DNA of 22,972 bases from an uncultured virus (IMG/VR IMGVR_UViG_2627854101_000001) (Duplodnaviria > Heunggongvirae > Uroviricota > Caudoviricetes): positions 62,001-84,972 of the IMG/VR virus record IMGVR_UViG_2627854101_000001. One strand, 5' to 3'. This document shows positions 46 through 20,493 of the stretch, piece by piece. Each line of letters starts with the position of its first letter. Position 1 is the first letter of the stretch. The notes below the pieces were generated by a model, which worked only from the letters and a program-made list of their open reading frames with translations, made no database searches and was not told where the DNA came from. Made by a program: the position numbers and the translations under genes.

Positions 46-519
46 ATGGAAACATTAGATGCACCAATTTACGAGATTAAGCAAGAAAGCGATTGGTATA
101 AAACTGAGAAGAAACGAAGAGAAGGCATTAACAAGTTCTTTGATGAATTCGAAGCAGCCTACGGAATTAAGGATGGTTTTTCGTTTTATAATTCTGAGTA
201 TTTCGGGGTTCGAGCAGGAACAGAAGCATATGTCTTCTTTAAAGATGAAGTGATGAAAAACCCTACAAAAGATGGCTTCTATGCATTTAAAAAACGTTCT
301 AAGTATTTTTCCGAGATTGGGTCTATGCTAGAGAAAGCAGAAGAGGTAAATCCTTTCAAAGGTCATGAGGTACTTGGGAGAAATAATATAGCTGCATACC
401 AATGGATAGGCGATAGATGGTTTTTTAGCGTATGGGATGAAAAACGTGTAGAAGGTGAAGAAGCTACACCTATTGACTATAAAGAGTATCTGAAAATTGT
501 AATGGAGCATTTAGATTAA
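46..519 (+). CDS. Hypothetical phage protein, 157 aa (possibly YosH-like, from memory)
   Basis: ORF with AAAGGAG RBS upstream. Its stop codon forms the left arm of a junction motif. Confidence 0.85.
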   Translation: METLDAPIYEIKQESDWYKTEKKRREGINKFFDEFEAAYGIKDGFSFYNSEYFGVRAGTEAYVFFKDEVMKNPTKDGFYAFKKRSKYFSEIGSMLEKAEEVNPFKGHEVLGRNNIAAYQWIGDRWFFSVWDEKRVEGEEATPIDYKEYLKIVMEHLD

Positions 520-557
520 AATTCAATTTTTAAAGAGACTTTTAAGGAGGTGAAAAA

Positions 558-965
558 GTGGGACGGCATAAAGCAACATTTGAGGGTAAGGTAATTAAGA
601 AAAGTTGGACATTAGACCTGTGTGATGCCCTTGTCCCAATTGAGAAGCAATGTAGATACCAGCCATTTTTTGAAGGGATCATCGACTTAGATCCAATTGA
701 AGTCGGAGGGAAAGTGTATATCCCAGGGTTTAACGAATACGTAGTCGTAACAGACAGGCAGCGCAACACAAAAAATGAATGGGCATATCAGACTGACAAG
801 GTAATTAAAACAATTGAAGATAAAGAGAGCCTTGAAAAAGCGATTCAAACACAAGAAAAAATACAGAAATGGAATCAACAAGTTAAAGAAAAATATGAAC
901 GCTTTAAAGAGGAAGGAGAAAAACGTAAAGCTTCTTGGTGGAAGAGGCTAATTAAAAAAGACTAA
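558..965 (+). CDS. Hypothetical phage protein, 135 aa (YosD-like)
   Basis: GTG start after a perfect AAGGAGGTG RBS; charged helical C-terminus ending SWWKRLIKKD. Confidence 0.85.
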   Translation: MGRHKATFEGKVIKKSWTLDLCDALVPIEKQCRYQPFFEGIIDLDPIEVGGKVYIPGFNEYVVVTDRQRNTKNEWAYQTDKVIKTIEDKESLEKAIQTQEKIQKWNQQVKEKYERFKEEGEKRKASWWKRLIKKD

Positions 966-979
966 AGGAGAGATATTTA

Positions 980-1327
980 TTGAATAAGAATACAAAAGAT
1001 ATTTGGAACGGTTTCTTTATCGGATCAGGTTCTCTGATTGTAGTTGGGTTACTCATTTTTGTTGAAGCATTGACTATGTCACTAGTTGTCTATTATGGAT
1101 TGAATCACGTGTTAAACCCATTGCTTATTGATACATACAGTATTCAAAATGTTCATGTCACTTTACCTCATTCATTTGTTATTGGTGTTTTACTCAACGT
1201 ATTTGTCAAAGGTGTAAAACGGTCAGATCAGGAAAAAGATGAGAACATTTTCAAGAAAGCCGGTAAGTCTTTACTTCATTCAGCTTTCGCACTGATCGTT
1301 CTGTATGTGAGCACACTGTTTATCTAA
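980..1327 (+). CDS. Membrane protein, 115 aa (YosE-like)
   Basis: TTG start after AAAGGAG; three hydrophobic segments. Confidence 0.85.
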   Translation: MNKNTKDIWNGFFIGSGSLIVVGLLIFVEALTMSLVVYYGLNHVLNPLLIDTYSIQNVHVTLPHSFVIGVLLNVFVKGVKRSDQEKDENIFKKAGKSLLHSAFALIVLYVSTLFI

Positions 1328-1344
1328 CGAGGAGAAACAAATAC

Positions 1345-1662
1345 ATGGAGGGTGATGTTATGGAATTAACAAAGAAGATTACAACGGTTAGAGGTACATA
1401 TGAAATTAAATTATCCGTTAAAGAAGGGGAAGTTTTACGATGGCATATTTTAGAATGGGAGGTTAAGGATTTTATTACGAAAAATACATTAGCTGCAGGC
1501 AATCAAGTTCCGGGGTTAATCATATACACAGGTTTAAGAAAATGGAGTCTAATTGAACAAGTTAAAAAAATTATTGGAAAAGTAGAAGCAGATGAATTGC
1601 GACATAAGGAAAAGAACGAGGATATTGAAGAATTTAATGACTGGAACGGAGTTCTTGTTTAA
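1345..1662 (+). CDS. Hypothetical phage protein (alternative start at 1360)
   Basis: GAGGAG precedes 1345 and GGAGGGTGA precedes ATG 1360. Confidence 0.8.
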   Translation: MEGDVMELTKKITTVRGTYEIKLSVKEGEVLRWHILEWEVKDFITKNTLAAGNQVPGLIIYTGLRKWSLIEQVKKIIGKVEADELRHKEKNEDIEEFNDWNGVLV

Positions 1663-1706
1663 TCGGTTAAAAGTTTTATTTTATCTAAACAGAGGGGGAA
1701 CTAAAT

Positions 1707-2204
1707 ATAGAGACTAAAACAAATTTTAACCAGGGGGTATTTTTTAACCCAGAGGAACGAACAGATGTCTGGGCAACCCCAATTGACTTTTTTAATAAAA
1801 TCAATGAAAGGTATAAATTAAATCTTGATGTGTGTGCCAAGCCATCAAACGCTAAGTGTAAAAACTTCTTTACTCCTGAAATTGATGGTTTGAAACAAAA
1901 ATGGGTTGGCAGGGTATGGATGAATCCCCCATATGGAAGGGAAATTAAAAAGTGGATTAAAAAAGCTTATGAAGAAGTTGAAAATGGGAATTCAGAAATT
2001 GCAGTTTGTCTTGTTCCTGCAAGAACTTGTTCTGCTTGGTGGCATGAATACTGTATGAAAGGTGAAATCTTATTCATTAGACACAGACTAAAGTTTGGAG
2101 GGAGTAAAATTAATGCTCCATTCCCTAATGCACTAGTCATCTTCAGTAATGAGCATGTGAATACATATAAAGCTATTGATAGAGAGGGCAACTTAGTTAT
2201 TTAA
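1707..2204 (+). CDS. Phage DNA N6-adenine methyltransferase (Dam-like, small phage family), probable ATA start
   Basis: NPPY catalytic motif plus LDVCA, DGLKQKW, LVPART and RLKFGG...APFP. The conserved WATP..FF segment lies upstream of the GTG at 1830. The frame is open back to ATA 1707, 8 nt after GAGGGGG. Confidence 0.88.
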   Translation: METKTNFNQGVFFNPEERTDVWATPIDFFNKINERYKLNLDVCAKPSNAKCKNFFTPEIDGLKQKWVGRVWMNPPYGREIKKWIKKAYEEVENGNSEIAVCLVPARTCSAWWHEYCMKGEILFIRHRLKFGGSKINAPFPNALVIFSNEHVNTYKAIDREGNLVI

Positions 2205-2251
2205 ATAAAAAAGTGTGGCTTTAAACCAATTTTGCAAAAGGAGATTCAGAT

Positions 2252-2605
2252 ATGATTTTAAAGGAAATCTCTGTTTATAAAGAAAAATTTAATAATTATT
2301 TACCGAAGGAAACGAAAATTGTCCTTCACTGCAAGAACATTGAAGCTGTTGAGGATGGGGACAAAATCATAATAAACACTGGTAAGGATTCATTAGCTTT
2401 TAAAGTGTTTGGTTTAGACGGAACACATACAGACACATTGAAAATGAAATTGACAAGCTATGAGGGAGAAACAAAAGTGATCAAGGTGAACGTAGATAAA
2501 ATTAAATTCAACACAGATGGAGACTTGGCAGTTAAATTAGAGTTTAAAGCACTTAGTTCATTAGGGGACGACATAGGCGAACCTGGAATTTATTCATTAC
2601 ATTAA
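2252..2605 (+). CDS. Hypothetical protein, 117 aa
   Basis: ATG after AAAGGAG; its stop is part of a junction motif. Confidence 0.8.
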   Translation: MILKEISVYKEKFNNYLPKETKIVLHCKNIEAVEDGDKIIINTGKDSLAFKVFGLDGTHTDTLKMKLTSYEGETKVIKVNVDKIKFNTDGDLAVKLEFKALSSLGDDIGEPGIYSLH

Positions 2606-2633
2606 AAGGATGATTTTAAGGAGTTGATTAGAC

Positions 2634-2930
2634 ATTAGTATAAGTCAAAGGCAGTCTCAACGTATTCGAGAAGCTCTGATAAATTCAAACACAACTGCTG
2701 AGGAAATTGGAATGGATAAGGCATTATCAGAAGTTCTCAATCTATTCAAGAGAAGAATTTTGGAGCTGGAAACTTTGTATTATCCAGAGTGGGAATATGA
2801 AAATGCAAAAGTGAAGCTTGAAGAGCTTAGAGAAATGGTGAATAGAATTAATGCACTTCGAGGAACCGGGAAGGATGAACAAAGTGAATTTGAAAATGCA
2901 GGAAGCGGTTTTACATCTAAACAAATATGA
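2634..2930 (+). CDS. Hypothetical protein; start uncertain (ATT 2634 by RBS position, first ATG 2712)
   Basis: AAGGAG at 2618-2623; frame open from 2628 to 2930. Confidence 0.65.
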   Translation: MSISQRQSQRIREALINSNTTAEEIGMDKALSEVLNLFKRRILELETLYYPEWEYENAKVKLEELREMVNRINALRGTGKDEQSEFENAGSGFTSKQI

Positions 2931-3192
2931 CAGCAGTTCAAAAAGTGCTCAAGATGCACAGAAGTTGTTGAATGCTTTGAAGGATACATACGATGTAGTC
3001 GGTTGTCGGTTTAGACATTATAAAGGCGGTCTTTATAAGGTTATTGGAGAGGTCATTCACACTGAAACAGAAGAAAAGCTGGTTACATATGAAGACCAAG
3101 ACGGATTACTTTGGGCAAGACCTAAAGAAATGTTCTTTGGAAATGTGGCTGTTGAAGGTAAAGAGATTAAGAGGTTCACAAAAATAAATTAA
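2875..3192 (+). CDS. DUF1653-family protein
   Basis: Signature G.RFRHYKGGLYKVIG...HTETEEKLV.Y...LWARP..MF. Start chosen at ATG 2875 after a purine-rich RBS-like stretch. Confidence 0.82.
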   Translation: MNKVNLKMQEAVLHLNKYDSSSKSAQDAQKLLNALKDTYDVVGCRFRHYKGGLYKVIGEVIHTETEEKLVTYEDQDGLLWARPKEMFFGNVAVEGKEIKRFTKIN

Positions 3193-3205
3193 AAGGATGA
3201 TGACA

Positions 3206-3538
3206 ATGAATAAAAAACACGGACTTTATTGCATGGGAACACTTGTTGGCACTTATGATGATGCTATTGAGGCTCATAAAGATGCTGTGTACGCTCAAGA
3301 AGAAAGCGGATTACCGCATGAGGTAAGAGAGATTGATGAAGTAGCTGATTTAAACGAATTTAAATTTAAGCTATCAGAAGAAGCTATTGCTGTAGTCAGC
3401 AATACTGTATACACAGCAAGAATGAATCATAATACTGAACAATTCGAAATAACTGACACTACAACCGACAGTACTCTTACTTATACAAAATCAGAAATAG
3501 ACAAGTACATCAAAAACAATGTTTTGGTTTTAGTTTAA
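3206..3538 (+). CDS. Hypothetical phage protein
   Basis: ORF 3197..3538; ATG 3206 is best spaced from AAAGGA. Confidence 0.78.
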   Translation: MNKKHGLYCMGTLVGTYDDAIEAHKDAVYAQEESGLPHEVREIDEVADLNEFKFKLSEEAIAVVSNTVYTARMNHNTEQFEITDTTTDSTLTYTKSEIDKYIKNNVLVLV

Positions 3539-3572
3539 ATAAAATCACAGTTTCATAGGAAGGGGACGCAAA

Positions 3573-3722
3573 ATGAGTGTAGCAAGGAAGTGGAGAGATC
3601 TAAGAAGTAAATTAATTGGATATAAGGCATTCGGTAAGTTTAGTGATGTTGTTATTGACCATATTCTCAATGATATGAATGAGTTAGATGTAAGACATGA
3701 AAAAGATAAAAACAAAAAATAA
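3573..3722 (+). CDS. Small hypothetical protein, 49 aa (MSVARKWRDLRSKLIGYKAF...)
   Basis: Read manually: GGAAGGGG RBS, ATG 3573, TAA 3720-3722; fills the gap between neighbours. Confidence 0.72.
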   Translation: MSVARKWRDLRSKLIGYKAFGKFSDVVIDHILNDMNELDVRHEKDKNKK

Positions 3723-3740
3723 AGAAAAGGGAGTTGTGGA

Positions 3741-4091
3741 ATGGGAGCTGCTAAACAGTTGTACGTTAAGCGCAGTCACTTTGTAACCTTGGATGAAGCA
3801 AAAGAAAATACGCAAGTACATATGAAAAATGGTGGTTCATACACTGCTTTAAAAGGCGAACTGATTGCGACCAATCTTGAAGGGGATCAAATGGTTATCA
3901 CGCAAGAGCAGAAGGATAACTACATTCCAGTACCGATGACAGAGCTATCAGACTATGAAGCTCAAATGGCCAAAGGTTATGCTGAGATGGCTGAGATCAA
4001 TTTAGAAATGTCTGAAGCATTCCATCATGCTGAAAATGAAGCAGAAACAACCACGAACAGCTTAGTTAACGGGGAATATAAAGAGTATTGA
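3741..4091 (+). CDS. Hypothetical phage protein, 116 aa (YosL-like by position)
   Basis: AAAGGGAG RBS; overlaps the nrdI start (TTGA). Confidence 0.82.
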   Translation: MGAAKQLYVKRSHFVTLDEAKENTQVHMKNGGSYTALKGELIATNLEGDQMVITQEQKDNYIPVPMTELSDYEAQMAKGYAEMAEINLEMSEAFHHAENEAETTTNSLVNGEYKEY

Positions 4092-4483
4092 TTATTACAT
4101 ATGAAAGCAAGACAGGAAACGTGAAAAGATTTGCTCAAGCACTGCAAAGGGAGTTAAACTTCGACATCATTGAAATTACAGATGATTTAATTGTGGAAGA
4201 AGAATTCATACATATTACATATACGATAGGCTTTGGGGAAATACCTGAAAGGACTTTGAATTTTATTATTAAGAATAAAAATAAAATAAAAGGAGTTGCT
4301 GTGAGTGGTAACAAGGTTTGGGGTGATAACTATGGTCTAGCTGGGGACAAACTTTCAGCAATGTTCCACGTACCATTGTTATTAAAATTTGAACTAAGTG
4401 GAACAAAACTAGATTTGCAGAAGATTAATCGGGAGGTACAACTTATTGACAAACACAATACCAAAGTGGATCAAGCTCAATAA
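4088..4483 (+). CDS. nrdI: Class Ib ribonucleotide reductase flavodoxin NrdI
   Basis: YESKTGNVKRF, TYTIGFGEIP, GVAVSGNKVWG and LLKFELSGT motifs. Confidence 0.97.
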   Translation: MIITYESKTGNVKRFAQALQRELNFDIIEITDDLIVEEEFIHITYTIGFGEIPERTLNFIIKNKNKIKGVAVSGNKVWGDNYGLAGDKLSAMFHVPLLLKFELSGTKLDLQKINREVQLIDKHNTKVDQAQ

Positions 4484-5588
4484 TGAGATCATGATTCAGA
4501 AAGACGGGAAGTTTCAATTTGAGAAGGATAAGGAGGCAGTACACAGTTACTTTGTAGATTATATTAATCAAAACACAGTCTTTTTCCATGACTTAAAAGA
4601 GAAACTGGATTATCTGATTAAAAATGATTATTACGAAGAAGAATTCTTAAGCGAATATACATTTGAGCAGATTAAATCAATTTATAAGATTGCTTACAGT
4701 TACAAATTCAGATTCCCTTCTTTCATGAGTGCTTTCAAGTTCTACAATGACTATGCATTGAAGACAAACGATAAAACAAAGATCCTAGAGAGATATGAGG
4801 ATCGTGTCTCAATTGTAGCTTTGTATTGTGCAGATGGTGATTATGATAAGGCTATTGAGGAAGTACACGCCATGATGAAACAAGAGTATCAGCCGGCAAC
4901 GCCTACTTTCCTTAATGCAGGACGTAAGCGAAGAGGTGAAATGGTAAGCTGTTTCTTGCTTGAAGTGGGAGACAGTTTGAATGATATTTCACGGGCGATC
5001 GATATTTCCATGCAGCTGTCTAAAGTGGGCGGCGGCGTTGCATTAAACCTAAGCAAATTACGAGCCAAGGGTGAAGCGATTAAAGACGTAGAGAATGCAA
5101 CTAAAGGCGTCGTAGGTGTTATGAAACTATTGGATAATGCTTTTAGATATGCAGATCAAATGGGACAAAGGCAAGGGTCTGGAGCAGCTTATCTAAATGT
5201 ATTCCATCCAGATATTACAGACGTCCTTGATACCAAAAAAATAAGTGCTGATGAAGATGTCCGAGTTAAAACACTATCTATTGGGGTAGTTGTTCCTGAT
5301 AAATTCATTGAATTGGCAAGAGAAGATAAGGATTTTTACATGTTCTATCCTCATTCAGTATACAAAGAATATGGGCAGTATCTTGATGAGATGGACATCA
5401 ATAAAATGTATGATGAACTTGTTGAAAACCCTAAAGTTAGGAAAACAAAGGGGAATGCTCGAAAGCTATTGGAGCAATTGGCCATTCTAAGAAGCGAATC
5501 TGGCTATCCTTATATCATGTTTGCTGACAATGTAAATAAAGTGCATCCAAATGAACATATTTCAAAAGTGAAGTTTTCTAATTTGTGT
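4446..5588 (+). CDS. nrdE: Class Ib ribonucleotide reductase alpha subunit, exon 1
   Basis: PATPTFLNAG, VSCFLL and GGGVALNLSKLR motifs; ends at FSNLC, the thiyl-radical cysteine. Confidence 0.97.
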
Positions 5589-5868
5589 TAACTGTAGCAC
5601 CTTCGGTCAGCAATGATCGTAGCAAACCCGTCTAAACGGTGAAACTCTATTCAATAGACAATACCGTGCTAAACCGCACCTTGCGGAAATGCCGAACGAC
5701 TATCGAAACCACGCATAAGCGTAAGGGAGTAGAGTACATCGCAAGCATATGGCGATGGAAACGGCGGGCGGCCTTATAGGTCGATGATATAGTCTATTCT
5801 TACGAGTGATCGTAAGCAGTTCATAAGAGAACGGACGAGAGTGTTGCGCCTTTCGTTGAATATAAAAG
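5589..5868 (+). ncRNA. ORF-less group I self-splicing intron, 280 nt
   Basis: Exon ends in U5588, which pairs with G5597 in P1 (GUGU/GCAC). P7 strands GACTA 5698-5702 and TAGTC 5790-5794; terminal G5868. Removal restores NLC-SEVLQ in frame. Confidence 0.95.
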
Positions 5869-6825
5869 TCAGAGGTGCTCCAAGCGTCACAAGTGTCAGT
5901 CTATACAGATTACGATCAGGAAGATGAAATTGGATTAGATATTTCATGTAATCTTGGATCCATGAACATTGTAAACGTAATGAGTAATCAATCAATTGCC
6001 TCAACGGTCAGAATCGCAGTTGACTCATTGACAACTGTTACAAGAAAAACAAACATTGTTAATGCCCCAGCTGTTGCGAGAGCAAATACACTAATGCGAT
6101 CAATTGGTCTAGGGCAGATGAACCTGCATGGTTTTCTAGCTCAAAATAAAATCGCTTATGAAAGTGAAGAGGCTAAGGACTTTGCAAATACATACTTTAT
6201 GATGGTTAACTTCTACTCCCTGCAACGTTCAATGGAAATTGCAAGAGAAACAGGGGAGACGTACTACAAGTTTGATGGATCAACTTACAAATCAGGCGAG
6301 TATTTTGATAAGTACGTGACAATTGATTATAGCCCTAAATATGAAAAGGTCAAAATCCTGTTTGGAGATCAACATATTCCTAACATTGAAGATTGGACGA
6401 AGCTTAAAGAGGATGTCATGAAATATGGCTTGTATCATTCATATAGGCAAGCTGTTGCACCTACTGGAAGCATCTCATATGTTCAATCATCTACAGCCGG
6501 TGTAATGCCTATTATGGAGAGAATTGAGGAACGTACATACGGAAACAGTAAGACATATTATCCGATGCCAGGTTTATCGGCTCAGAATTGGTTCTTCTAT
6601 AAGGAAGCATACGACATGGATATGTTTAAGGTAGTTGATCTTATTGCAACAATTCAGCAGCACGTCGACCAAGGAATTTCTTTTACGTTGTTCTTAAGGG
6701 ATACGATGACGACAAGAGATTTAAACCGGATCGACTTATATGCGCATCATAAAGGAATTAAGACGCTGTATTATGCTCGAACGAAGGATACAACACAAGA
6801 GGGTTGCCTTAGTTGTGTAGTGTAG
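5869..6825 (+). CDS. nrdE: Class Ib ribonucleotide reductase alpha subunit, exon 2 (spliced product 699 aa)
   Basis: SEVLQ, ISCNLGS, AVAPTGSIS, KTLYY and C-terminal CLSCVV. Confidence 0.97.
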   Translation, partial: SEVLQASQVSVYTDYDQEDEIGLDISCNLGSMNIVNVMSNQSIASTVRIAVDSLTTVTRKTNIVNAPAVARANTLMRSIGLGQMNLHGFLAQNKIAYESEEAKDFANTYFMMVNFYSLQRSMEIARETGETYYKFDGSTYKSGEYFDKYVTIDYSPKYEKVKILFGDQHIPNIEDWTKLKEDVMKYGLYHSYRQAVAPTGSISYVQSSTAGVMPIMERIEERTYGNSKTYYPMPGLSAQNWFFYKEAYDMDMFKVVDLIATIQQHVDQGISFTLFLRDTMTTRDLNRIDLYAHHKGIKTLYYARTKDTTQEGCLSCVV

Positions 6826-6838
6826 GAGGTCAGATTCT

Positions 6839-7354
6839 ATAAAAAACAAATATGAAATCAGAGGCGACACTACAGCCATATTTATTGAGAGTGAAAAATT
6901 TGGATTGATAGAAACAATAATTGCTACAGAAGATTTACCAAAAGCCCAAGAAATTGAAGGTTGGTGGTGCGTTAGTTGGGATTCTTGCATTAAAAACTTT
7001 TATGTGAGAGGAAACAAAAAAGTGAAAGATGGTGTTTGGAAAAAGGTTAGACTTCACAGATGGTTGATGGGAGTGACTGATCCAAAAACGCAAGTTGACC
7101 ATATGTTACGAGATACTTTAGATAATTGTCGATGGGCTTTACGTATTGTATCAGCATCTGAAAATAGCCAAAACAGAAGAGTTCCTTCAAACAACACTAG
7201 TGGACATAGGGGTGTCTATTGGAATAGCAATAGGCAAATGTGGGAAGCGAGGATAGACGCAAATCGAAAAACGATATACTTAGGTTATTTCAGCAATAAA
7301 TCCGATGCTGCCAGAGTAAGAAAAGAAGCAGAGGAGAAGTATTGGATTATTTAG
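6839..7354 (+). CDS. Free-standing HNH endonuclease with C-terminal AP2 DNA-binding domain, probable ATA start
   Basis: LHRWLM...VDH...DN...EN..N HNH-type motif; [10 protein letters not shown]...WEARI...YLGYF AP2 motif. AGGAGGT 6824-6830 lies 8 nt before an in-frame ATA. Confidence 0.9.
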
Positions 7355-7365
7355 GAGGAACAAAA

Positions 7366-7961
7366 TTGACAAATTACACAGCAGCAAACTGGTCAAAGCA
7401 TGAAGATGATTTCACCCAAATGTTTTACAACCAAAACGTAAAGCAGTTTTGGCTTCCGGAAGAGATCGCATTAAACGGCGATCTTCTCACTTGGAAGTAT
7501 CTTGGAACAAAGGAACAAGATACTTATATGAAAGTTTTAGCTGGGCTTACATTATTGGACACAGAGCAGGGGAACACAGGCATGCCGATTGTGGCCGAGC
7601 ACGTCGAAGGCCATCAGCGAAAAGCAGTATTAAACTTTATGGCGATGATGGAAAACGCGGTGCACGCAAAATCTTACAGCAACATCTTTCTAACTTTGGC
7701 TCCAACCGAGAAGATCAATGAAGTGTTTGATTGGGTGAAAAACAATAAGTTTCTTCAAAAGAAAGCAAGAACAATTGTTTCAATTTATAAAGCAGTTCAG
7801 AAAAACGATGAAATTTCCTTATTCAAAGCAATGGTTGCATCTGTGTTTCTGGAGAGTTTCCTTTTCTATTCAGGGTTTTATTATCCACTTTACTTTTATG
7901 GACAAGGGAAGCTCATGCAGAGCGGGGAAATTGTAAATTTAATTATCCGTGACGAAGCCAT
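7366..7961 (+). CDS. nrdF: Class Ib ribonucleotide reductase beta subunit, exon 1
   Basis: TTG after [31 protein letters not shown] and [10 protein letters not shown]; ends IRDEA plus AT. Confidence 0.96.
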
Positions 7962-8949
7962 TAAGTGCTAGTGGCATTTAGCAGTAATGTTAAATGAAAA
8001 CCTATCTAAAAAGGGGAAGTCTTATAGCTAAGATAATCCTTTGCTAAATTCTAATCATCATTAAATTCAATATTTAGGAGTGTTGCCTTGTATTATGTCT
8101 ATATGATAATGAATAAACAAAATAAGAAGATTTACATTGGCTTAACCAAAAATGTTAACAACGCTGACGATAGATTTAAACAACATATTCGCTATTTAAA
8201 AGGAAACTATCATCATAATCATAAATTGCAAAGAGACTTTAACTTGCATAAATGCACTGATATGTATACACATCACTTATTATGCAAATGTTCTAGCATC
8301 AAACTTGCTGAAAAAATGGAGAAGTTTTTCATTGCATACTATAACAGTAAATATTGTGGATTTAACCTAAATGACGGCGGGCTTTCAAATAAAGGATACA
8401 AGCAATCTGATTATGCAAAAAAGGTTGCAAGTGAAGTTCACTCTAAGCTAATTGGAGAAAAAAATCCTTTCTTTGGAAGACGACATTCTGAGAAAACAAA
8501 AATGATTATTTCTAAAAAGAACAAAGGGAGAAATAAAGGTATCCCTAAGAGCGATAGTCATATAAAGAAAATGATTGAAAATAATGCTAGAGCAAAAAAA
8601 GTCTTCGTTGGCGGTCAAATATACAGCAGTTGTTCGCAAGCTCAATTACATACGGGCATAGATAGGAAGAAAATATCAAAGCTTGCATCAGACGATTCAA
8701 TAACAAACATATACTTTATAAAATAAAAACAATTTTAATGATGATTAGATAAATGCCCAACGACTATTCCATTGGCGGTGGAATTCCGCAACAGAAGTAG
8801 GGCGCAAGTGATTGGCGTGGGTGAGAATCCCTTAAATCGAAACGGTAGGAATCCTAAATTAGGATTGTGATATAGTCTGCTCTGCATGGCGACATGCAGC
8901 TGTGGTTAGTCCACGCTTTAAGTATAGCGAACTTAAGGGAACATCAAGG
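7962..8949 (+). mobile_element. Group I intron, 988 nt, carrying a homing endonuclease ORF
   Basis: P1 GCCAU/GUGGC with U7961.G7971; AACGACTA 8759-8766 and GATATAGTC 8869-8877; terminal G8949. Splicing gives AT|A CAC, restoring DEAIHG in frame. Confidence 0.95.
8088..8726 (+). CDS. Intron-encoded GIY-YIG homing endonuclease with NUMOD3-type DNA-binding region
   Basis: YVY-x10-YIG motif, RFKQH, E..FI, GFNL and GEKNPFFGRRHSEKTK; AGGAG RBS and TTG start. Confidence 0.92.
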   Translation: MYYVYMIMNKQNKKIYIGLTKNVNNADDRFKQHIRYLKGNYHHNHKLQRDFNLHKCTDMYTHHLLCKCSSIKLAEKMEKFFIAYYNSKYCGFNLNDGGLSNKGYKQSDYAKKVASEVHSKLIGEKNPFFGRRHSEKTKMIISKKNKGRNKGIPKSDSHIKKMIENNARAKKVFVGGQIYSSCSQAQLHTGIDRKKISKLASDDSITNIYFIK

Positions 8950-10571: not shown

Positions 10572-10780
10572 TACAAGCCCTGGCTTAGATCATGATGTTT
10601 GTCCAGTGGAGGGTCTTAGCCAGGGTACAACTTAAAATACTCAAAAAGCTCAATAATTATGCCAAACAAAGAGGTTGTTTCAGGAAAAGGTTTTACAAAA
10701 AGGCGTCGATACAGGGATGTTGATGGGATGAACATCTCAATAAAAGAAGACTTTTATCTAAAACAATAAGGAGGAAAAAC

Positions 10781-11179
10781 ATGAATAAACGGACAGAATA
10801 CTTAAATCCAAATGAACAGATTGCCTTCTTTTTTAAAAGAAGCGGTTATTTAGATGATTATCATAGAGACTTAAAAAATCTTAAGCTTGGGCATGTGTCT
10901 TATGATGAAAGTGTTAACGAAGAATTTGATTATAAACTGACTGCAAATAGCACACATGATGGGACTCTGTTATTTGAAATTCAAACCATTGAAGAAGCTC
11001 TAATTAAATTGATAAATCGAAAAACATACTGTCCAAACACTTTTCCGGTTGATAAAAAAATCGAAGAACTTAAAGACATTAGCTATATAGTTGGTGACAT
11101 TGAGCTGGTGAATGATTTTTATAGAGCTAAGCAGAAAACTGCAGTCTCAATCCCAGTTGTGTGCAACTATGTGTTTTAG
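10781..11179 (+). CDS. Hypothetical protein, 132 aa
   Basis: AAGGAGG RBS and ATG. Confidence 0.82.
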   Translation: MNKRTEYLNPNEQIAFFFKRSGYLDDYHRDLKNLKLGHVSYDESVNEEFDYKLTANSTHDGTLLFEIQTIEEALIKLINRKTYCPNTFPVDKKIEELKDISYIVGDIELVNDFYRAKQKTAVSIPVVCNYVF

Positions 11180-11637: not shown

Positions 11638-11683
11638 GTATAGTCATTTATAGAATAAAAATAAAATAAGGAGATGTATTAGA

Positions 11684-14121: not shown

Positions 14122-14146
14122 ATTAAGAATAAAAATAAAATAGTTA

Positions 14147-14205: not shown

Positions 14206-14250
14206 ACATACTTTTAGAATAAAAATAAAATAATAAATAGGAGTGACGAT

Positions 14251-14616: not shown

Positions 14617-14638
14617 GAACAAGCCTACATAATTAAAT

Positions 14639-14661
14639 AAAAAAGAGAGGGAAGCCCTCTC
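14639..14661 (-). terminator. Intrinsic terminator of the secreted-protein gene (possibly bidirectional)
   Basis: GAGAGGG-aag-CCCTCTC stem with an A6 run on its left, which is a U-tract on the - strand. Confidence 0.82.
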
Positions 14662-14667
14662 AATGTA

Positions 14668-15198
14668 TTAGTAATTATAATCCCAATAAACATCAACATT
14701 AACCTTTACTTGAGCTACACTGTCATTGTTATGTGCTCGGATATACAATTGTTTTCCTGAAATAAGTGATGTGTTCACGCTAAATACTTTGTAAAATTGT
14801 TCACTGATATAATTTCCGCCACTTGGTGTAACAGAAGCCAGCACAGTACCATCTGACTTCATTAATTCATAAGTCACATTTGCACTTCTACTTCCTGTTC
14901 CTGTTGACCATTGTTTCCCCATGATGGAAATCTTGGTTACGTTGTTTGGTGTAAAGCTGGAGACTACTGTTGCGTAAGATGCAGGGCCTGAAGAAGATCT
15001 ACCTATGTTGACTTCACCAACACCATTTTTGCGATCTGTGCCAGTTTTTAAAACATGGAAGCTATCAGTATTTGTTAAGGCTTCAAGATTACTGTGAGGC
15101 ACGGCAGCTGGCTCACTTTTAGCAGTGGCATTCGCTGACGCAGCTACACCGGTAAGACCAATAGTTGAAACTAATAAAGCAATTGCTGTCTTTTTCAT
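14668..15198 (-). CDS. Secreted protein of unknown function (moron-like), about 176 aa
   Basis: MKK + hydrophobic core + ASA/ANA signal peptide; Ser/Thr/Gly-rich mature part; AAAGGGAG RBS 9 nt before ATG 15198. Confidence 0.87.
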   Translation of the reverse strand: MKKTAIALLVSTIGLTGVAASANATAKSEPAAVPHSNLEALTNTDSFHVLKTGTDRKNGVGEVNIGRSSSGPASYATVVSSFTPNNVTKISIMGKQWSTGTGSRSANVTYELMKSDGTVLASVTPSGGNYISEQFYKVFSVNTSLISGKQLYIRAHNNDSVAQVKVNVDVYWDYNY

Positions 15199-15236
15199 TA
15201 AAAACATCTCCCTTTTTAGGTATGTAATACAACTAT

Positions 15237-15245
15237 ATTATAACA
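15237..15245 (-). promoter_or_regulatory. Extended -10 SigA promoter for the secreted-protein gene
   Basis: TGtTATAAT on the - strand; poor -35. Confidence 0.6.
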
Positions 15246-15342
15246 ATTAATTTTGAAATAAATGGAGAATATTGTGGATATATAGTGAATTTTCTGAATG
15301 AGGTGTAAATTTCTTAAATGCGAACTTTAAGGAGGTGATTAA

Positions 15343-15690
15343 TTGCAACAAAAAGAGCAAGAATTGGTGTCAAAGAAAGAACGGGTTGAAATTGATGTTT
15401 TAGAAAAGGAAGCAGCTTTACTCCGGCTGGAAGTGGAACAAGAAGATTTTAATCTCCACAAAATTGAGGAGATCGGTGTACTCAAAGATTTTCTTTTATA
15501 CATAAAGAAATACAGAGCAATGTTTACTGTGCAGCAAGCAGAAGAAATTAGAAATATGGATGACCGAATGAAAGAAATTATCAAAGTCCATGATGGACAA
15601 GTAATTGTTGATGAAGGATCTTTAGAGGCGTTTATTGAGGAAATTGAGAATCAAATTAATTTAGATATAAGTGGAGGGAATAAGCGATGA
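15343..15690 (+). CDS. Hypothetical protein, 115 aa (YosX-like)
   Basis: Perfect AAGGAGGTGA RBS and TTG start. Confidence 0.85.
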   Translation: MQQKEQELVSKKERVEIDVLEKEAALLRLEVEQEDFNLHKIEEIGVLKDFLLYIKKYRAMFTVQQAEEIRNMDDRMKEIIKVHDGQVIVDEGSLEAFIEEIENQINLDISGGNKR

Positions 15691-15735
15691 AGGAGTGGTT
15701 AATACATGGTTTTAAAAACTCGGAGGGATTGCGTA

Positions 15736-16785
15736 ATGGCTGAAACGAAAGAGTACGTACAGATTAAGAAGGCGCCCTGTAGATCGATATGGTATGCAGA
15801 TAAGATTGGGAGCATATTTCCTTCGTTAGGGACGTGGGAGAACGCGTATAAGGTCGATAGTCCGGATAGGGCGCTGTATATTCGAAAAGAGGACGCTGAG
15901 CTTATCATCACTGAAAATCGTCGCCCCAAAGTCGACGAGCGCGTGTTAATTACGGAAGTACTATTGTCATCAAGCGACTATAAGATTGGCGATATCTGCA
16001 CGGTACGAAGCGTAGTAGACGCCTACGGGACTATTACCGTAAAAGAGAACGCTAATTGTGTACTAGCGAGGGAATACGAAGTCATCATCAATAGCGAAGT
16101 TAAAAACGAGGAGGCTAACGGAATGAAAAGGGAATACGCATTTAAACCGAACTTGGACGCAATGGGATACGACGAGTTAATCGCGCACGGTGAAGGATAT
16201 CGGCAAGGCAAGTTCGATGCGGAGACGGATACTACGCACGGGCAGGCTCCGGCTCACAAAAGCGCCCAAGTCCTACGCGATGAAATCGTTGAGATGGCAA
16301 AGGCGGACGTTGAGAATTTGAAGGCGTACGGAAAGCAGTCGTCAAGATCTACCAGCCTCGGAAATTTAACGTATAGAGAGTATTATTATTCGGTTGAGTT
16401 TAAGGTTAGCTCCAATAAGCGGAAGGTAAGCGCATTAATCTATCCTATCGGTCGTCTCGGCTTCATATCAGGTAGACCCATTCATGTCGGCCGAGCAAAA
16501 GCCGCACCGGACGACTGCTTCAACGTTCACATCGGCAAAGCTATTGCGCTAAGACGTGCGCTAGGCTTGACGGTGCCGGATGAATACTTGAACGCTCCGC
16601 AGCCGACTGAGGTTCGTGTAGGCGATGTTATAGAAGTTACATTAGATAGCGGAGAAATAGAGAAAAAGCCCGTTATTTCTTTAAAAGCAGGAAGTCTAAA
16701 TGCGCATTTGCCGGGAAGGATTGTACAGTACCCATCGCATTATGCAAAAATCATCGACGACTCACGCGAAGAGGTGGGCGAATGA
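15736..16785 (+). CDS. Mosaic phage protein, about 349 aa, function unknown
   Basis: GGAGGG RBS before ATG 15736. Contains G.AKAAPDDCFNVHIGKAIALRRALG, a motif I recognise from Bacillus siphophage hypothetical proteins. Confidence 0.85.
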   Translation: MAETKEYVQIKKAPCRSIWYADKIGSIFPSLGTWENAYKVDSPDRALYIRKEDAELIITENRRPKVDERVLITEVLLSSSDYKIGDICTVRSVVDAYGTITVKENANCVLAREYEVIINSEVKNEEANGMKREYAFKPNLDAMGYDELIAHGEGYRQGKFDAETDTTHGQAPAHKSAQVLRDEIVEMAKADVENLKAYGKQSSRSTSLGNLTYREYYYSVEFKVSSNKRKVSALIYPIGRLGFISGRPIHVGRAKAAPDDCFNVHIGKAIALRRALGLTVPDEYLNAPQPTEVRVGDVIEVTLDSGEIEKKPVISLKAGSLNAHLPGRIVQYPSHYAKIIDDSREEVGE

Positions 16786-16928
16786 CTTACGATCCCGCGA
16801 AAGTGACGACCGATCTTGATTTCGTAGACGGCATGCTACGTGTCGTAAAGGATTCGGGATACACCGTGTACCTCATCGTAGATAGAGATACCGGAAAGAT
16901 TCACGTAATAAACGTAATTGAGAATTAA
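16782..16928 (+). CDS. Small hypothetical protein, 48 aa (MTYDPAKVTTDLDFVDG...)
   Basis: Read manually: GAGGTG RBS and ATGA overlap. Confidence 0.72.
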   Translation: MTYDPAKVTTDLDFVDGMLRVVKDSGYTVYLIVDRDTGKIHVINVIEN

Positions 16929-16945
16929 CGAAAGGAGGCGCGTGA

Positions 16946-17149
16946 GTGACGTATCATAGACGCTTGAAAACAACGGTGTTTAAAAAATATAGCAGGTACG
17001 ATTGGACTTACGATGGAATGTTTGAAAAACCAAGAGTGAAAGGCAGCGATAAAAGAAAGCGATCGAAACATGAGCGAATAATCCGAAAAGTGATGGATAA
17101 AAAAGAAATTAGTTATTACGACCAAGTTAATATGAAATCTGTATTTTAA
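16946..17149 (+). CDS. Small basic hypothetical protein, 67 aa
   Basis: AAAGGAGG RBS and GTG start. Confidence 0.75.
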   Translation: MTYHRRLKTTVFKKYSRYDWTYDGMFEKPRVKGSDKRKRSKHERIIRKVMDKKEISYYDQVNMKSVF

Positions 17150-17167
17150 AGAGAAGGATAGTGAGCT

Positions 17168-17473
17168 ATGGAGAAAATCAATGGCAGGTATAGGATTAAA
17201 ACACCTTGTCCAAAGGGAATTTCAGGATGTGCTGTTTGTCATTATTTATGGATAGACGAAGATGCGTACGACCAGATTTTCGATTGTTATTATGATTATT
17301 ATGGCAAAAAACTAGACCCATCATCTGTGGTCAAAATACATAAACACCTGCCGAAAGATATTCACTTGTTAGCAGAAGAATGGGGATGGAATGACACAGA
17401 GGTCAGAGAAAAAATTTATAAATGGTTGAGAGAAGAGATGATCTGGGTGTTCGGGCTTGGGAAAGGAGTATAA
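17168..17473 (+). CDS. Hypothetical protein, 101 aa, with CP...GCAVCH Cys/His motif
   Basis: GAAGGA RBS and ATG. Confidence 0.8.
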   Translation: MEKINGRYRIKTPCPKGISGCAVCHYLWIDEDAYDQIFDCYYDYYGKKLDPSSVVKIHKHLPKDIHLLAEEWGWNDTEVREKIYKWLREEMIWVFGLGKGV

Positions 17474-17495
17474 AAATAGAGGGGATTAACCCCTC
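17472..17495 (-). terminator. Intrinsic terminator of sspC
   Basis: GAGGGG-attaa-CCCCTC stem with AAAAATA on its left. Confidence 0.78.
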
Positions 17496-17500
17496 ATACA

Positions 17501-17713
17501 TTAATGAAATTGTCCATTCATGCTTTGTTGAGCCAGGCGAACCAAACGTTTTGTAATTTCTCCACCTACTGATCCGTTTGCTCGGCTAGTTGTCTCAGGC
17601 CCTAAGTTCACACCGAACTCAGAAGCAATTTCATACTTCATTTGTTCAAGGGCACCAGCAGCTTGAGGTACAAGTAATTCATTGCTGTTGTTTGATCTGT
17701 TTTGTTGAGCCAT
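17501..17713 (-). CDS. sspC: Alpha/beta-type small acid-soluble spore protein, 70 aa
   Basis: LLVPQA...[41 protein letters not shown] before ATG 17713. Confidence 0.96.
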
Positions 17714-17757
17714 TTGATCATCTCCTAAAGTAGTATGTAAACAAGTTTGTTCAATTG

Positions 17758-17787
17758 TATTGTGTGGAGATGTTTTGAAAATATACA
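17758..17787 (-). promoter_or_regulatory. SigG (forespore) promoter of sspC
   Basis: TGTATA-17 nt-CACAATA on the - strand. Confidence 0.72.
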
Positions 17788-17812
17788 AATTAATTTGAAG
17801 TGAGGGGATTAC

Positions 17813-18043
17813 ATGGATTTTTCAAGTGTTAAAGAAGGAGACGTAATTAAATATATCGGTGATTCTTGGGCTTACGGTGGAACCTATACAACTGTTACAG
17901 CCGAATCTACATACAGTAACCCAGATAGCTGCCCAAGAAATGAACAAGATCGATTGATGATTATTGAGTTTATGAACGACGGTACGCCAATGTTCTTCAC
18001 ATTAGATCAACTTAATCCTGGAGAGTGGGAATTAGTTAATTAA
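17813..18043 (+). CDS. Hypothetical protein, 76 aa
   Basis: GAGGGG RBS and ATG. Confidence 0.78.
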
Positions 18044-18090
18044 TACGATTCGGGTGAAATTCTAATTTTATACAGGAAGGGTTGATAGCC

Positions 18091-18282
18091 ATGACAATTG
18101 AAGAAATTGAAGAAAAGGCATTTTACGCATCTGAAACAATGGTTGAATTAGATAGGGTGTCATATGAATGGCTTATTGAAAGAGCCAAGAGAGCAAATCT
18201 TCTTGAAAAGGAGTTTCAAGGGATTGCTGAATCTGCTTACAAATTAAAACAAGAATTAGATGGAGAAGTCGAAGAGGATTGA
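18091..18282 (+). CDS. Hypothetical protein, about 63 aa
   Basis: GGAAGGG RBS; ATG 18091 within ORF 18082..18282. Confidence 0.75.
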   Translation: MTIEEIEEKAFYASETMVELDRVSYEWLIERAKRANLLEKEFQGIAESAYKLKQELDGEVEED

Positions 18283-18318
18283 TAAAATGTTGATTTCATT
18301 TAGAAGGGATAAATCTCA

Positions 18319-18471
18319 ATGAAAGAAATTGAATTTGAAGAAATTAAGCAATTCGTTGAAGTGATGTCTCGGCAAGCTGGATCGACCAAGGTGATGAAAA
18401 TTCACATAAGTTATGCAGAATGGTTGGTCGCTGAAGTCGAACGCTTAAGGGGGTTAACCAGTCATGGATAA
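18319..18471 (+). CDS. Small hypothetical protein, 50 aa (MKEIEFEEIKQFVE...)
   Basis: Read manually: GAAGGGA RBS; overlaps the next start. Confidence 0.72.
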   Translation: MKEIEFEEIKQFVEVMSRQAGSTKVMKIHISYAEWLVAEVERLRGLTSHG

Positions 18472-18898
18472 TGGATCAGGTACAAAGGTAAATATTCATT
18501 TTAATAACGGTTCTCTAATTGAGGGTTTCAAAGTGTCTAGTGAACTAACCGAACCTTCGACTATATATGAACAAATAATGAATCATCCGGAAAGCAAAAA
18601 GGCAGTGTTAATCAAGTTTGGTTTTGGGCAATTGTCCCCGATTAAAGTGGAAAAATGGTTTAAGTCATACAATCCACCCAAATACTACGAATTTAGAAAA
18701 GTAGCTAACCACAGAAAGGTTACTGACCTACATACTCAAGCAATGACAAAGGATCAAAGGACGCATTTATTAAACTTGGAAGAGGTCTTTAATGATGAAA
18801 AGTCTAGAAATGCGTTATTAAAATTAGCAGAACAAAACACTAAGAGAAATAAGGATGGACTGACTATTATCGAAAAACATGATCCTTGGAGGGGCTAA
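18464..18898 (+). CDS. Hypothetical protein, 144 aa
   Basis: AAGGGGG RBS and ATG. Confidence 0.8.
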   Translation: MDNGSGTKVNIHFNNGSLIEGFKVSSELTEPSTIYEQIMNHPESKKAVLIKFGFGQLSPIKVEKWFKSYNPPKYYEFRKVANHRKVTDLHTQAMTKDQRTHLLNLEEVFNDEKSRNALLKLAEQNTKRNKDGLTIIEKHDPWRG

Positions 18899-19327
18899 AT
18901 GCAGGCGAACATTACTAAGGAACTGTCGTGGTGGGGAGTTACTTTGACTGGAAGTATGAAAACCGTAAAATCTTTAAGTGAGCTGATGGAAATAAACAAA
19001 GAACTGTTCGAGAATCTCTACAAAGTCCAAACAGACACAATTGAAGAGCTTGTAAACAAATTATATGAACAGGTTCCTGAGTATGAGAAGAAATTCTTGA
19101 AGTATGTTAATGAGCAGCTACCTAATCTGAGGAGGTGCTTACAAGTCGAACTGCCCTATAATACTCAACTAATATCAAGCATAGAATATGAAATTTACAT
19201 ATCAGGTGCCGAAATTGATTGTGAATACCCTTTTGATGCGAGAGGTTGTATTATTACTTTCTTTCAACGGGTACCAGAAATAATCGATTTGCACAGGGAG
19301 GAATTAGATGAAGAATACAGAGTTTAA
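18899..19327 (+). CDS. Hypothetical acidic protein, 142 aa
   Basis: GGAGGGG RBS; abuts the upstream stop. Confidence 0.8.
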   Translation: MQANITKELSWWGVTLTGSMKTVKSLSELMEINKELFENLYKVQTDTIEELVNKLYEQVPEYEKKFLKYVNEQLPNLRRCLQVELPYNTQLISSIEYEIYISGAEIDCEYPFDARGCIITFFQRVPEIIDLHREELDEEYRV

Positions 19328-19856
19328 GGTAACAAGTTTATTAGAGGAGTATAAACGAAGAGATGAGGAACGTAGGGAATTCATCATTCATGAAGGTTAC
19401 AGAGCTATCGAAGAGATCATTAAAGAAGTGAGCCAAAGAGGAACACTAAATGAAGCAGATATTTATTATGGAACACCTAAACCACAGATAAGCTTCTCGG
19501 ACGTCGAATTAGGCTACATGCTTACTTCTATGATGGAATATGCTACAAATCATGTTGGAAATCCAGTTGATGAGGAATGTGAACTTGAAAATAAGCTGGC
19601 TTACTTTGAGCATAAGGACGAAATTGTTCAAGTTTTTGAAGTATATGGACAAGGTACTGACAGCTGGTTTTTGAAACCAAGTGACGATACCGTTTATAAA
19701 TTGAATAACACAGCTTACGGAGTATATTTAAACCAGTTCGATGATTTCATTAATTACACTAAAAATAAAGACAATGAGAGTAAAAAGGTTTCTTCTAGTA
19801 CCACGATCTTAAATGACATTACCGACGGGTATGCAGTTGGAAGAGGTTCTAAGTAG
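19308..19856 (+). CDS. Hypothetical acidic protein, 182 aa
   Basis: GGGAGG RBS and ATG. Confidence 0.82.
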   Translation: MKNTEFKVTSLLEEYKRRDEERREFIIHEGYRAIEEIIKEVSQRGTLNEADIYYGTPKPQISFSDVELGYMLTSMMEYATNHVGNPVDEECELENKLAYFEHKDEIVQVFEVYGQGTDSWFLKPSDDTVYKLNNTAYGVYLNQFDDFINYTKNKDNESKKVSSSTTILNDITDGYAVGRGSK

Positions 19857-20027
19857 ATGATTGTGACAGCTTGGATCTTGTTCGTCGCATTTGGGCTTGT
19901 GTTGTTAGCAAACATGGATTCTCATGGGGATATTAAATTTGCAGTCTATATTGGTGTAATAAAACTTGTTTCAATTTTTATTGTTGCTATTGCAGCAGGA
20001 GTTATATGGGGAGGATTATTTCAATGA
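19857..20027 (+). CDS. Small two-helix membrane protein, 56 aa (YotH-like by position)
   Basis: Read manually: AGAGGT RBS; two hydrophobic segments; ATGA overlap with the next gene. Confidence 0.78.
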   Translation: MIVTAWILFVAFGLVLLANMDSHGDIKFAVYIGVIKLVSIFIVAIAAGVIWGGLFQ

Positions 20028-20455
20028 AGACGATTAAATTATATGAACTTGTATTACAAGGTAAAAAACCGATTATTAAATTTAATGACAATGTGTATGA
20101 ATGGATTGAAGAATCAGTCGATCCCATGATGATGGGGAAAATAATTGGGGCTTCAATTGAGTATGATGAGATTAAATTTTCACTAGATTTGAATCCTTTT
20201 GAAGCATACAATCGAAGCGTTGCGCGGCATGATTGGAGAGATGATGAAGGGAATAATGTTTTATCATGGTTTGACACTTCTTTCTATCCGAAAAACGGAA
20301 TTGCAGCTATTTACTTACCTATTAATGAAAAAACAGAAATCGCATTTGATTTTATAGAAGAGGATTCTTTATTAAATGAATATGCAAAAAACACTCAAGA
20401 CATCTCGTATGTTGAATGGCTGGAAAATGAAGTTAAGAAATTGAGGAGTAAATAA
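20024..20455 (+). CDS. Hypothetical protein, 143 aa
   Basis: GGGAGG RBS before ATG 20024. Confidence 0.82.
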   Translation: MKTIKLYELVLQGKKPIIKFNDNVYEWIEESVDPMMMGKIIGASIEYDEIKFSLDLNPFEAYNRSVARHDWRDDEGNNVLSWFDTSFYPKNGIAAIYLPINEKTEIAFDFIEEDSLLNEYAKNTQDISYVEWLENEVKKLRSK

Positions 20456-20493
20456 AATCGGTCTTTTATATAGAAGAAAAAAGGAGTGTAAGG

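Follow-up and report, generated by a model that had tools for sequence, protein, structure and literature searches.

Ordered, labelled joints between accessory genes in the early region of an SPbeta-like Bacillus phage

Introduction

Ever since the modular theory of phage evolution, it has been asked how tailed phages can exchange genes precisely at gene borders in the absence of homology. The present analysis concerns a stretch of 22,972 nt from an uncultured virus of the Caudoviricetes (hereafter the window; positions 62,001 to 84,972 of IMG/VR record IMGVR_UViG_2627854101_000001), which forms the final 23 kb of an 85-kb virus contig. A preliminary description of the window listed nine copies of a palindromic motif, TRAAA-N6-TTTYA, at junctions between accessory genes, and proposed that they delimit promoterless cassettes of an integron-like system. 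In the computational analysis reported here, we call the intergenic copies joints, the two five-base ends arms, the six bases between them the centre, and the place of a joint in the order of joints its slot. The joints look like an ordered, labelled set for in-register exchange, not an integron.

By sequence similarity and gene content, the source is an SPbeta-like Bacillus phage, and the window carries its yos/yot early region. SPBc2, phi3T, Goe11-14, and SPbetaL1-8 are relatives of the window, with about 86% identity over about one third of its length.

Occurrence of the motif

All nine listed copies are present in the window, and a tenth match lies at 15387-15402, inside the open reading frame (ORF) 15343-15690. 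These 10 copies compare with 0.98 ± 0.98 in 100 dinucleotide shuffles (maximum 4), in agreement with the earlier estimate of about one chance copy. When the spacer length k was varied from 0 to 15, k = 6 gave 10, 36, and 36 matches in the window, the contig, and SPBc2, respectively, and every other length gave 0-10. Across 100 related IMG/VR loci (1.54 Mb), k = 6 gave 617 matches and the other lengths 28-144. Enrichment over intergenic background, the absence of which would have refuted the preliminary description by its own criterion, was also found, with 30 copies in the intergenic DNA of SPBc2 against 0.80 ± 0.89 (19,481 nt annotated as intergenic; 300 mononucleotide shuffles within segments, maximum 4) and 0-3 matches for other spacer lengths.

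According to the coding sequence (CDS) table of the SPBc2 record, on which all positional statistics for this phage rest, 31 of the 36 copies were not wholly inside a CDS, although non-coding DNA makes up 13.8% of the genome. The TAA of an arm was the stop codon of the upstream gene in 10 copies, and most copies ended 20-36 nt ahead of the next start. At record position 111029, a joint followed by a ribosome-binding site was located inside the annotated yorM CDS (110881-111597), the start of which may be annotated too far upstream. In the window, eight of the nine listed copies were within 11 nt of a stop codon, the exception being that at 10741, and the nrdI-E-F and thyA-dfr blocks contained no copies, both as previously described. 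Tolerance of one arm mismatch added no site, and one-mismatch variation was confined to position 2 (A/G) or the mirror position 15 (T/C). The degenerate copies reported at 1, 2208, and 11181 had at least two arm mismatches each and were not counted as sites.

The motif was also found far beyond the close relatives. Five distant relatives, with YopP proteins 26-35% identical and YotM proteins 38-60% identical to those of the contig, contained 40, 50, 38, 13, and 7 copies against a background of about 1-10, again with enrichment at k = 6 alone, and 24 distant yopP loci contained 1-15 copies against 0.2-1.9. The motif is real and family-wide.

The six-base centre as the address of a slot

The six bases of the centre vary between slots and are kept within a slot in related phages, such that the centre serves as an address. 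The spacer had been described as freely varying, which is correct between slots and incorrect within a slot, where the centre is more conserved than the genes beside it. For each intergenic site of the window, the exact 16-mer recurred in other loci, both 60-nt flanks being unrelated in most instances, and at the GTTTTA and TCGGTC sites, unrelated upstream genes were combined with unrelated downstream genes. In a survey of contexts (100 loci, the contig, and SPBc2; ungapped 30-mers clustered at up to 35% mismatch), about 15 16-mers had 20-49 occurrences apiece, which fell into 5-17 context clusters on the upstream side and 2-16 on the downstream side, and four-gamete quartets were identified at 12 of the top 20 16-mers. 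These are counts of distinct contexts and not of independent events, as many loci came from the same or near-identical contigs. A search blind to the motif, for islands of exact identity of at least 15 nt to at least three loci with both 30-nt flanks less than 50% identical, recovered all nine intergenic sites (5-29 loci each). Among the 47 islands listed by this search were also a 17-mer repeat with dispersed copies, a single ribosome-binding site, and numerous weaker strings.

In 42 loci anchored on NrdI, the centres before nrd followed the order GAATCA/GAGTCA, TATCTC, GATCAA, TTTGTC, TATTCC, TTCAAT, GTTTTA, GGATGA, and TCACAG, and those past the nrd block the order GGGTAA, GAAGAC, GAATAC, CTAATA, and TCTGTA, with very variable spacing. 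Among about 100 related loci, the order agreed in 1,546 of 1,550 ordered pairs of 18 recurrent centres; all four exceptions involved the in-gene copy with centre TTGATG, and one reverse-complement centre only was found. Gene families hold their slot as well, with homologs of ORF 558-965 located between TTCAAT and GTTTTA in 29 of 36 cases. No identical pair of centres was present within the contig or within SPBc2.

Thirteen loci with YopP only 28-35% identical still had 3-10 centres in common with the contig, while the 40-nt flanks of these shared centres were 0.28-0.45 identical, which is approximately random. The shared centres were collinear in nine of these 13 loci, and the four exceptions involved TTCTAA or GTTTTA. 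A separate clade of larger phages had its own, different set of shared centres. These results indicate that the arms are family-wide and the centres clade-wide, and that both outlast the genes.

The fixed order bears directly on the integron-like system of the preliminary description, in which an integrase would excise, insert, and reorder promoterless cassettes. Inverted-repeat sites do delimit small genes here, and the phage does encode a tyrosine recombinase. However, no integron integrase of the IntI type and no folded site of the attC type were found, the order is invariant, and the site stays with the position, not with the cassette. Cassette shuffling is likewise contradicted by the conserved order of centres and by gene families that stay in their slot. 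As a candidate identity, attC, a long imperfect inverted repeat that folds as a single strand, was rejected for want of complementarity outside the 5-bp arms, and the same 16-mer remains with different genes on either side instead of travelling with a cassette. An integron-like system is therefore extremely improbable.

Exchange point and symmetry of the site

The left-arm allele was linked to the upstream flank at three of four centres (TTCTAA, p < 0.001; TCTGTA, p = 0.008; GTTTTA, p = 0.007), the link at TATCTC not being significant, and to the downstream flank weakly at one of the four (GTTTTA, p = 0.04; p = 0.66 for TTCTAA). The right-arm allele was linked to the downstream flank at all three centres (TCACAG, p < 0.001; TGTTGA, p = 0.002; GTTTTA, p = 0.038) and to the upstream flank at none of them. 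Since arm alleles follow the flank on their own side, exchange falls between core positions 2 and 15, an interval that is the resolution of this mapping and does not give cleavage points. Moreover, several unrelated genes terminate exactly on the arm TAA, as at the joint with centre GGATGA, which is not expected from random breakage. Exchange inside the core, slot-specific collinear centres, and combinatorial flanks are features of these genomes.

Outside the arms, 326 distinct upstream ends had a left consensus of T (56%), Y (80%), and T (59%) at -6 to -4 and A (76%) at -1, and 326 distinct downstream ends had a right consensus of T (56%) at +1 and A (61%), R (87%), and A (77%) at +4 to +6. 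This outer consensus was weak (0.2-0.5 bits per position), and mirrored flank positions were complementary no more often than column composition predicts. A mirrored consensus without covariation suggests that a dimer binds double-stranded DNA, at a site of about 28 bp with an 11-6-11 layout, in which each of two half-sites of about 11 bp comprises 5 invariant bp and the weaker mirrored consensus at ±1, 4, 5, and 6. The earlier suggestion of tyrosine-recombinase core sites at accessory junctions is supported by the dyad arms, the 6-bp centre, and the 11-6-11 layout, but its integron model is not supported.

The constant position between a stop codon and the next ribosome-binding site would also suit an RNA-level element of polycistronic early transcripts, such as a hairpin, a processing site, or a translation signal, and other phages process early mRNAs at intergenic sites. 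The predicted RNA folds of the nine sites were weak, however (0 to -3.2 kcal/mol; z-scores -1.79 to +1.44), with pairing that stops at five A-U pairs and no complementarity past the 5-bp arms, which led us to reject both a hairpin and an extended hairpin, and a scan of the window at Rfam gathering scores gave no matches. An RNA element would also provide no reason for slot-specific centres. We consider this explanation highly improbable, and the RNA-processing site that the preliminary description had offered as an alternative found no support. The joints had been called too weak for terminators, and indeed no terminator-like match was located on any of them; in the same scan, they were clear of promoters except for one promoter-like match overlapping the joint at 18283, which we read as chance.

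Dyad symmetry without covariation would equally be expected if a dimeric DNA-binding protein used the sites only as operators or for an architectural purpose and they played no role in exchange, the shared centres then being due to descent. A precedent exists in the same phage family, as MrpR has a recombinase fold and, in the available text of PMC10516654, solely binds DNA, at SPBRE. Operators do not explain why one centre persists as the flanks on either side of it change in many combinations, why arm alleles separate at the core, or why gene swap boundaries are about 15-fold enriched at the sites. In addition, descent alone would not keep six bases beside 40 nt at random-level identity. Operator sites without exchange are thus very unlikely, while a dimeric protein site as such, the other alternative of the preliminary description, is compatible with the explanation that we favour.

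That explanation is site-specific recombination. The 16-mer would be the invariant core of the dyad-symmetric 28-bp site in double-stranded DNA, placed between a stop codon and the next ribosome-binding site, and the common arms and outer consensus (T-Y-T-n-n-A on the left, T-n-n-A-R-A on the right) would most likely dock two copies of one protein. When two SPbeta-like genomes are present in one cell, strand exchange would take place inside the core of same-slot sites. The recombinant would carry the left of the joint from one phage and the right from the other, in register, even without homology of the neighbouring genes. We infer that such a reaction would be both conservative and site-specific, and that a tyrosine recombinase requiring identical centres would carry it out. 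With the uncertainty about the enzyme included, site-specific recombination at matched centres is probably the mechanism, and is the most likely one, at a probability of roughly 0.55.

Candidate recombinase

A YopP homolog is encoded at contig positions 26229-27287, outside the window, and contains SAM-like and integrase domains. Its best NCBIfam matches were XerA, XerC, and XerD, all far below the cut-offs, and its score with the integron integrase model TIGR02249 was 27.6 bits against a cut-off of 265. By alignment, the catalytic residues R173, K202, H263, H289, and Y299 were kept in all five homologs compared (24-33% identity), and R266 in four of the five. The predicted structure (mean predicted local distance difference test score, pLDDT, 74.8) matched the folds of XerA, XerH, Tn1549 Int, lambda Int, and Cre. 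A phmmer search of YopP against PDB gave nothing at E ≤ 0.01 and weak Xer matches at E ≤ 10. The available text of PMC8612738 and PMC10516654 describes YopP as an XerC-superfamily protein and a core gene of the family, to which it gives no function, and attributes SPbeta integration to the serine recombinase SprA.

Its presence and conservation make YopP a reasonable candidate, and only a candidate, for the enzyme acting at the joints; YomM or the host CodV/RipX are alternatives. It is possible, at somewhat less than even odds, that the joints are a natural array of 30-50 heterospecific sites and that YopP crosses over same-slot sites of two co-resident genomes.

Gene swaps at joints and elsewhere

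The preliminary description had asked whether breakpoints of gene gain, loss, and reordering fall inside the 6-nt spacer. We examined 108 recent events between close relatives, for which flank identity had to reach 96% across 300 nt or more. Thirty-six of 152 distinct boundary contexts were within 10 nt of a joint, against 2.4 expected (maximum 8 in 500 simulations), and 47 of 152 were within 25 nt, against 4.4 expected (maximum 11). Breakpoints of gene gain, loss, and replacement are hence at the motif far above chance, although joints are not the sole swap points. A noisy probe test gave a mean swap fraction of 0.97 at eight motif junctions and 0.68 at 25 motif-free junctions. Between SPBc2 and the phi3Ts, boundaries within 10 nt of joints numbered 8 of 72, against 0.72 for random positions. 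In public-run data, an independent set which consisted of contigs only (the best run covered 24% of sampled words), homology of one isolate contig to the window resumed at 17132, broke at 18075, and resumed at 18283, indicating that the single-gene cassette 18082-18282 between adjacent joints was replaced; other breaks of the same contig were at motif-free places.

Several results weigh against site-specific recombination or limit its reach. Joints make up about one quarter of recent swap boundaries, a minority, with both ends at joints in four of the 108 events, one end in 22, and neither in 82. By class, boundaries at joints were 17 of 106 for non-homologous replacements, 6 of 32 for indels, and 3 of 34 for divergent-allele swaps. 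A minority of the BLAST end-clusters in the window (13 of 106) were likewise at joints, which cover 1.7% of the sequence, and the 8 of 72 boundaries between SPBc2 and the phi3Ts compare with 3.7 (maximum 12) when random intergenic positions are used. Motif-free junctions swap too, and many non-joint boundaries were found at ribosome-binding sites or start codons. In three laboratory hybrids of phi3T and SPbeta (Hyb1-3), crossovers occurred within blocks of 1.36, 4.8, and 18.2 kb without parent-specific 21-mers; four block edges fall on joints, but ordinary homologous recombination suffices for these hybrids, which do not need the joints. The invariant part of each arm, 5 bp, is short for a recombinase half-site. 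The model of YopP is weak at the catalytic tyrosine (pLDDT < 50 for residues 287-302), and shared ancestry confounds the co-occurrence of YopP and the motif, which were never uncoupled in all the complete distant relatives checked. No selection for dissimilar centres was seen, as centres within a genome were no more dissimilar than chance; a requirement for identical centres would fit the absence of order violations among true joints and the slot fidelity of cassettes, but not the lack of any excess of dissimilarity. Lastly, all the support is comparative.

Some of these observations favour the main rival, in which the 16-21 bp of slot identity are short-homology linkers used by general or relaxed homologous recombination (Sak4-like annealase, host RecA) and the arms are conserved for another reason, such as recognition by a regulatory protein. 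Genes for a Sak4-like annealing protein and a Holliday-junction resolvase are present in the phage, laboratory hybrids form in long identical blocks, many boundaries are at other short shared strings such as ribosome-binding sites, and similar centres are not avoided. Furthermore, phage Rad52-like recombinases drive mosaicism by relaxed homologous recombination, according to the available text of PMC3945230. Nevertheless, short homology leaves unexplained the common dyad arms, the fixed 6-bp centre, and the mirrored consensus, including in clades with other centre sets, and sixteen bases are very short for homology-driven exchange between flanks of random identity. We regard short-homology linkers as unlikely, though they are the rival to be taken most seriously, and continue to prefer site-specific recombination at the joints.

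Comparison with known systems

The 11-6-11 layout is given for dif, Bsdif, and archaeal dif in the available text of PMC5357621. The single-recombinase Xer/dif systems (XerA/dif, XerH/difH, and XerS/difSL) and Bsdif share it with the joints, and the A-tract and T-tract of the inner arms resemble dif, difSL, and difH (PMC5357621, as far as available). XerA and XerH are the enzymes that the candidate YopP most resembles, both in sequence family and in predicted fold. In contrast to the single dif, joints number dozens per genome, each with its own centre and located at gene junctions, and their apparent outcome is gene exchange between genomes rather than dimer resolution. The pdif sites and dif modules of Acinetobacter plasmids are similar in that accessory genes lie between several Xer-type sites, which delimit mobile modules; these sites resemble the host dif, are treated as part of the dif/Xer system, and have modules that move between replicons (available text of Mindlin et al. 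2019, PMC6449649). The joints differ from pdif sites by their slot-specific centres, fixed order, and in-register exchange.

Heterospecific spacer variants of lox and FRT have common arms and different centres, recombine only when their centres are alike, and are used in engineered cassette exchange. By analogy, a rule of this type would explain the slot fidelity of the joints and the absence of internal deletions. The lack of selection for dissimilar centres sets the joints apart from these engineered sites.

The PeSL cassettes of T4-type phages also consist of short conserved intergenic motifs amid small non-essential genes and undergo modular shuffling (PMC2839356 and PMC4122927, in the parts available). 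PeSLs are units of a promoter and a terminator stem-loop that are mutually alike and recombine into deletions and mini-circles (Arbiol et al. 2010, PMC2839356, same limitation), whereas the joints have no promoter or terminator signal and a unique centre each. As an identity for the joints, PeSL was rejected because of the lack of a sigma-70-like promoter with a terminator stem-loop, the lack of a stable fold, and the difference in centres between slots. SPBRE likewise recurs between genes in this phage family, where the tyrosine-recombinase-fold protein MrpR (YopR) binds it, but differs from the joints in being another sequence of 15 bp, at about ten promoters and not at stop-to-ribosome-binding-site junctions, with no slot-specific part in the available text (PMC10516654). 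The string shared upstream of the SPBRE-bearing genes of SPBc2 was unrelated to the 16-mer, and this identity was also rejected. We found no published description of the motif in the literature, including the available parts of PMC8270828 and bioRxiv 10.1101/2021.11.22.469490, and no natural array of recombinase sites with common arms and different centres in print.

Individual sites of the window

The first joint (517..532, centre TTCAAT) provides with its arm TAA the stop codon of ORF 46-519, and the next start is at 558. Its 16-mer had 36 instances in relatives, with neither 60-nt flank related in 19, and is an identity island shared with 18 loci. The second (1668..1683, GTTTTA) is located 5 nt past the stop of ORF 1345-1662; neither flank was related in 34 of 37 instances, 24 distinct contexts were recorded, and the island is shared with 29 loci. 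Downstream of this joint, the Dam-like methyltransferase ORF 1830-2204 matched its Pfam profile from position 34 onward only and looks truncated. It sits between the GTTTTA joint and a cassette that directly abuts that joint in relatives, and the junction on its downstream side (2205-2225) carries a degenerate motif copy only.

At the third joint (2603..2618, GGATGA), the arm TAA is the stop of ORF 2252-2605, and 17 upstream and 16 downstream context clusters were combined. The joint at 3540..3555 (TCACAG, right arm TTTCA) follows the stop of ORF 3197-3538 by 1 nt. The joint at 10741..10756 (GAAGAC), upstream of ORF 10781-11179, had 49 instances with 8 upstream and 10 downstream clusters.

The in-gene match TGAAA TTGATG TTTTA (15387..15402) had both flanks homologous in 14 of 17 recurrences and moves together with its gene, and it is probably a chance copy and no joint. 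A TTGATG copy in one relative (L006, about 2.9 kb upstream of nrdI) occupied a different slot, between TTCAAT and GTTTTA, and one-base variants in two others (L014 and L022) occupied the same shifted slot, which suggests that a gene family can occasionally change slot.

The stop codon of ORF 16946-17149 shares bases with the right arm of the joint at 17133..17148 (TCTGTA, left arm TGAAA). The joint at 18055..18070 (TTCTAA, left arm TGAAA) is located 11 nt past the stop of ORF 17813-18043, and that at 18283..18298 (TGTTGA, right arm TTTCA) directly behind the TGA of ORF 18082-18282. These three are identity islands shared with 27, 29, and 26 loci, respectively. At the last joint (20453..20468, TCGGTC), the arm TAA is the stop of ORF 20006-20455, neither flank was related in 31 of 34 instances, and 29 distinct contexts were recorded.

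Other features of the window and contig

Besides small unknown genes, the window harbored nrdI, nrdE, and nrdF, and genes for a thioredoxin, a dUTPase, thyA, dfrA, a SASP, a macro-domain protein, and a YotM-like Holliday-junction resolvase. Both nrdE and nrdF are interrupted, each being split into two ORFs (regions 5592-5874 and 7972-8893 of the window). ORF 8088-8726, in the nrdF gap, encodes a GIY-YIG/NUMOD3 endonuclease, and ORF 6905-7354, between nrdE and nrdF, had a weak AP2-domain match (21.8 bits, below the cut-off of 33.3). No group I intron was identified in the window at the Rfam gathering score, while SPBc2 is annotated with introns at the homologous genes.

Outside the window, the contig encodes YonO, AimR, the YopP-like tyrosine recombinase, YopQ, MrpR, a Sak4-like annealase, and replication genes. 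A full-length homolog of Gad1, the Gabija anti-defence protein, was found in the variable early region (E 7.7e-150; contig 37993-38883), and a gene for a tubulin/FtsZ-family GTPase (contig 6270-7382) adjoins that of the YonO-like RNA polymerase.

A second dispersed repeat, AGAATAAAAATAAAATA, was identified at window positions 4272-4288, 11652-11668, 14126-14142, 14216-14232, and 21706-21722. These five copies, all on the + strand, compare with 0.12 expected, and they are identity islands common to 61-71 loci. In relatives, the repeat is often located between a joint and the ribosome-binding site. One copy provides the -10-like TAAAAT of a promoter-like match, and the copy at 4272 is inside nrdI. 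The repeat could act as a promoter, as a regulatory element, or as a further kind of linker that lacks an address.

Implications for phage mosaicism

The joints are a sequence-defined candidate, in a model phage family, for what holds the register of gene exchange. If site-specific recombination at matched centres is correct, it would allow in-register exchange between phages without gene homology and would be a mechanism dedicated to phage mosaicism, with recombinase-mediated cassette exchange as its engineered counterpart. It would also give a reason for the variability of early accessory regions, anti-defence genes included, and could supply orthogonal recombination sites for engineering. 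The hypothesis is testable in Bacillus subtilis 168 with SPbeta and phi3T, and if an enzyme were tied to the sites, this would provide a function for the core gene YopP.

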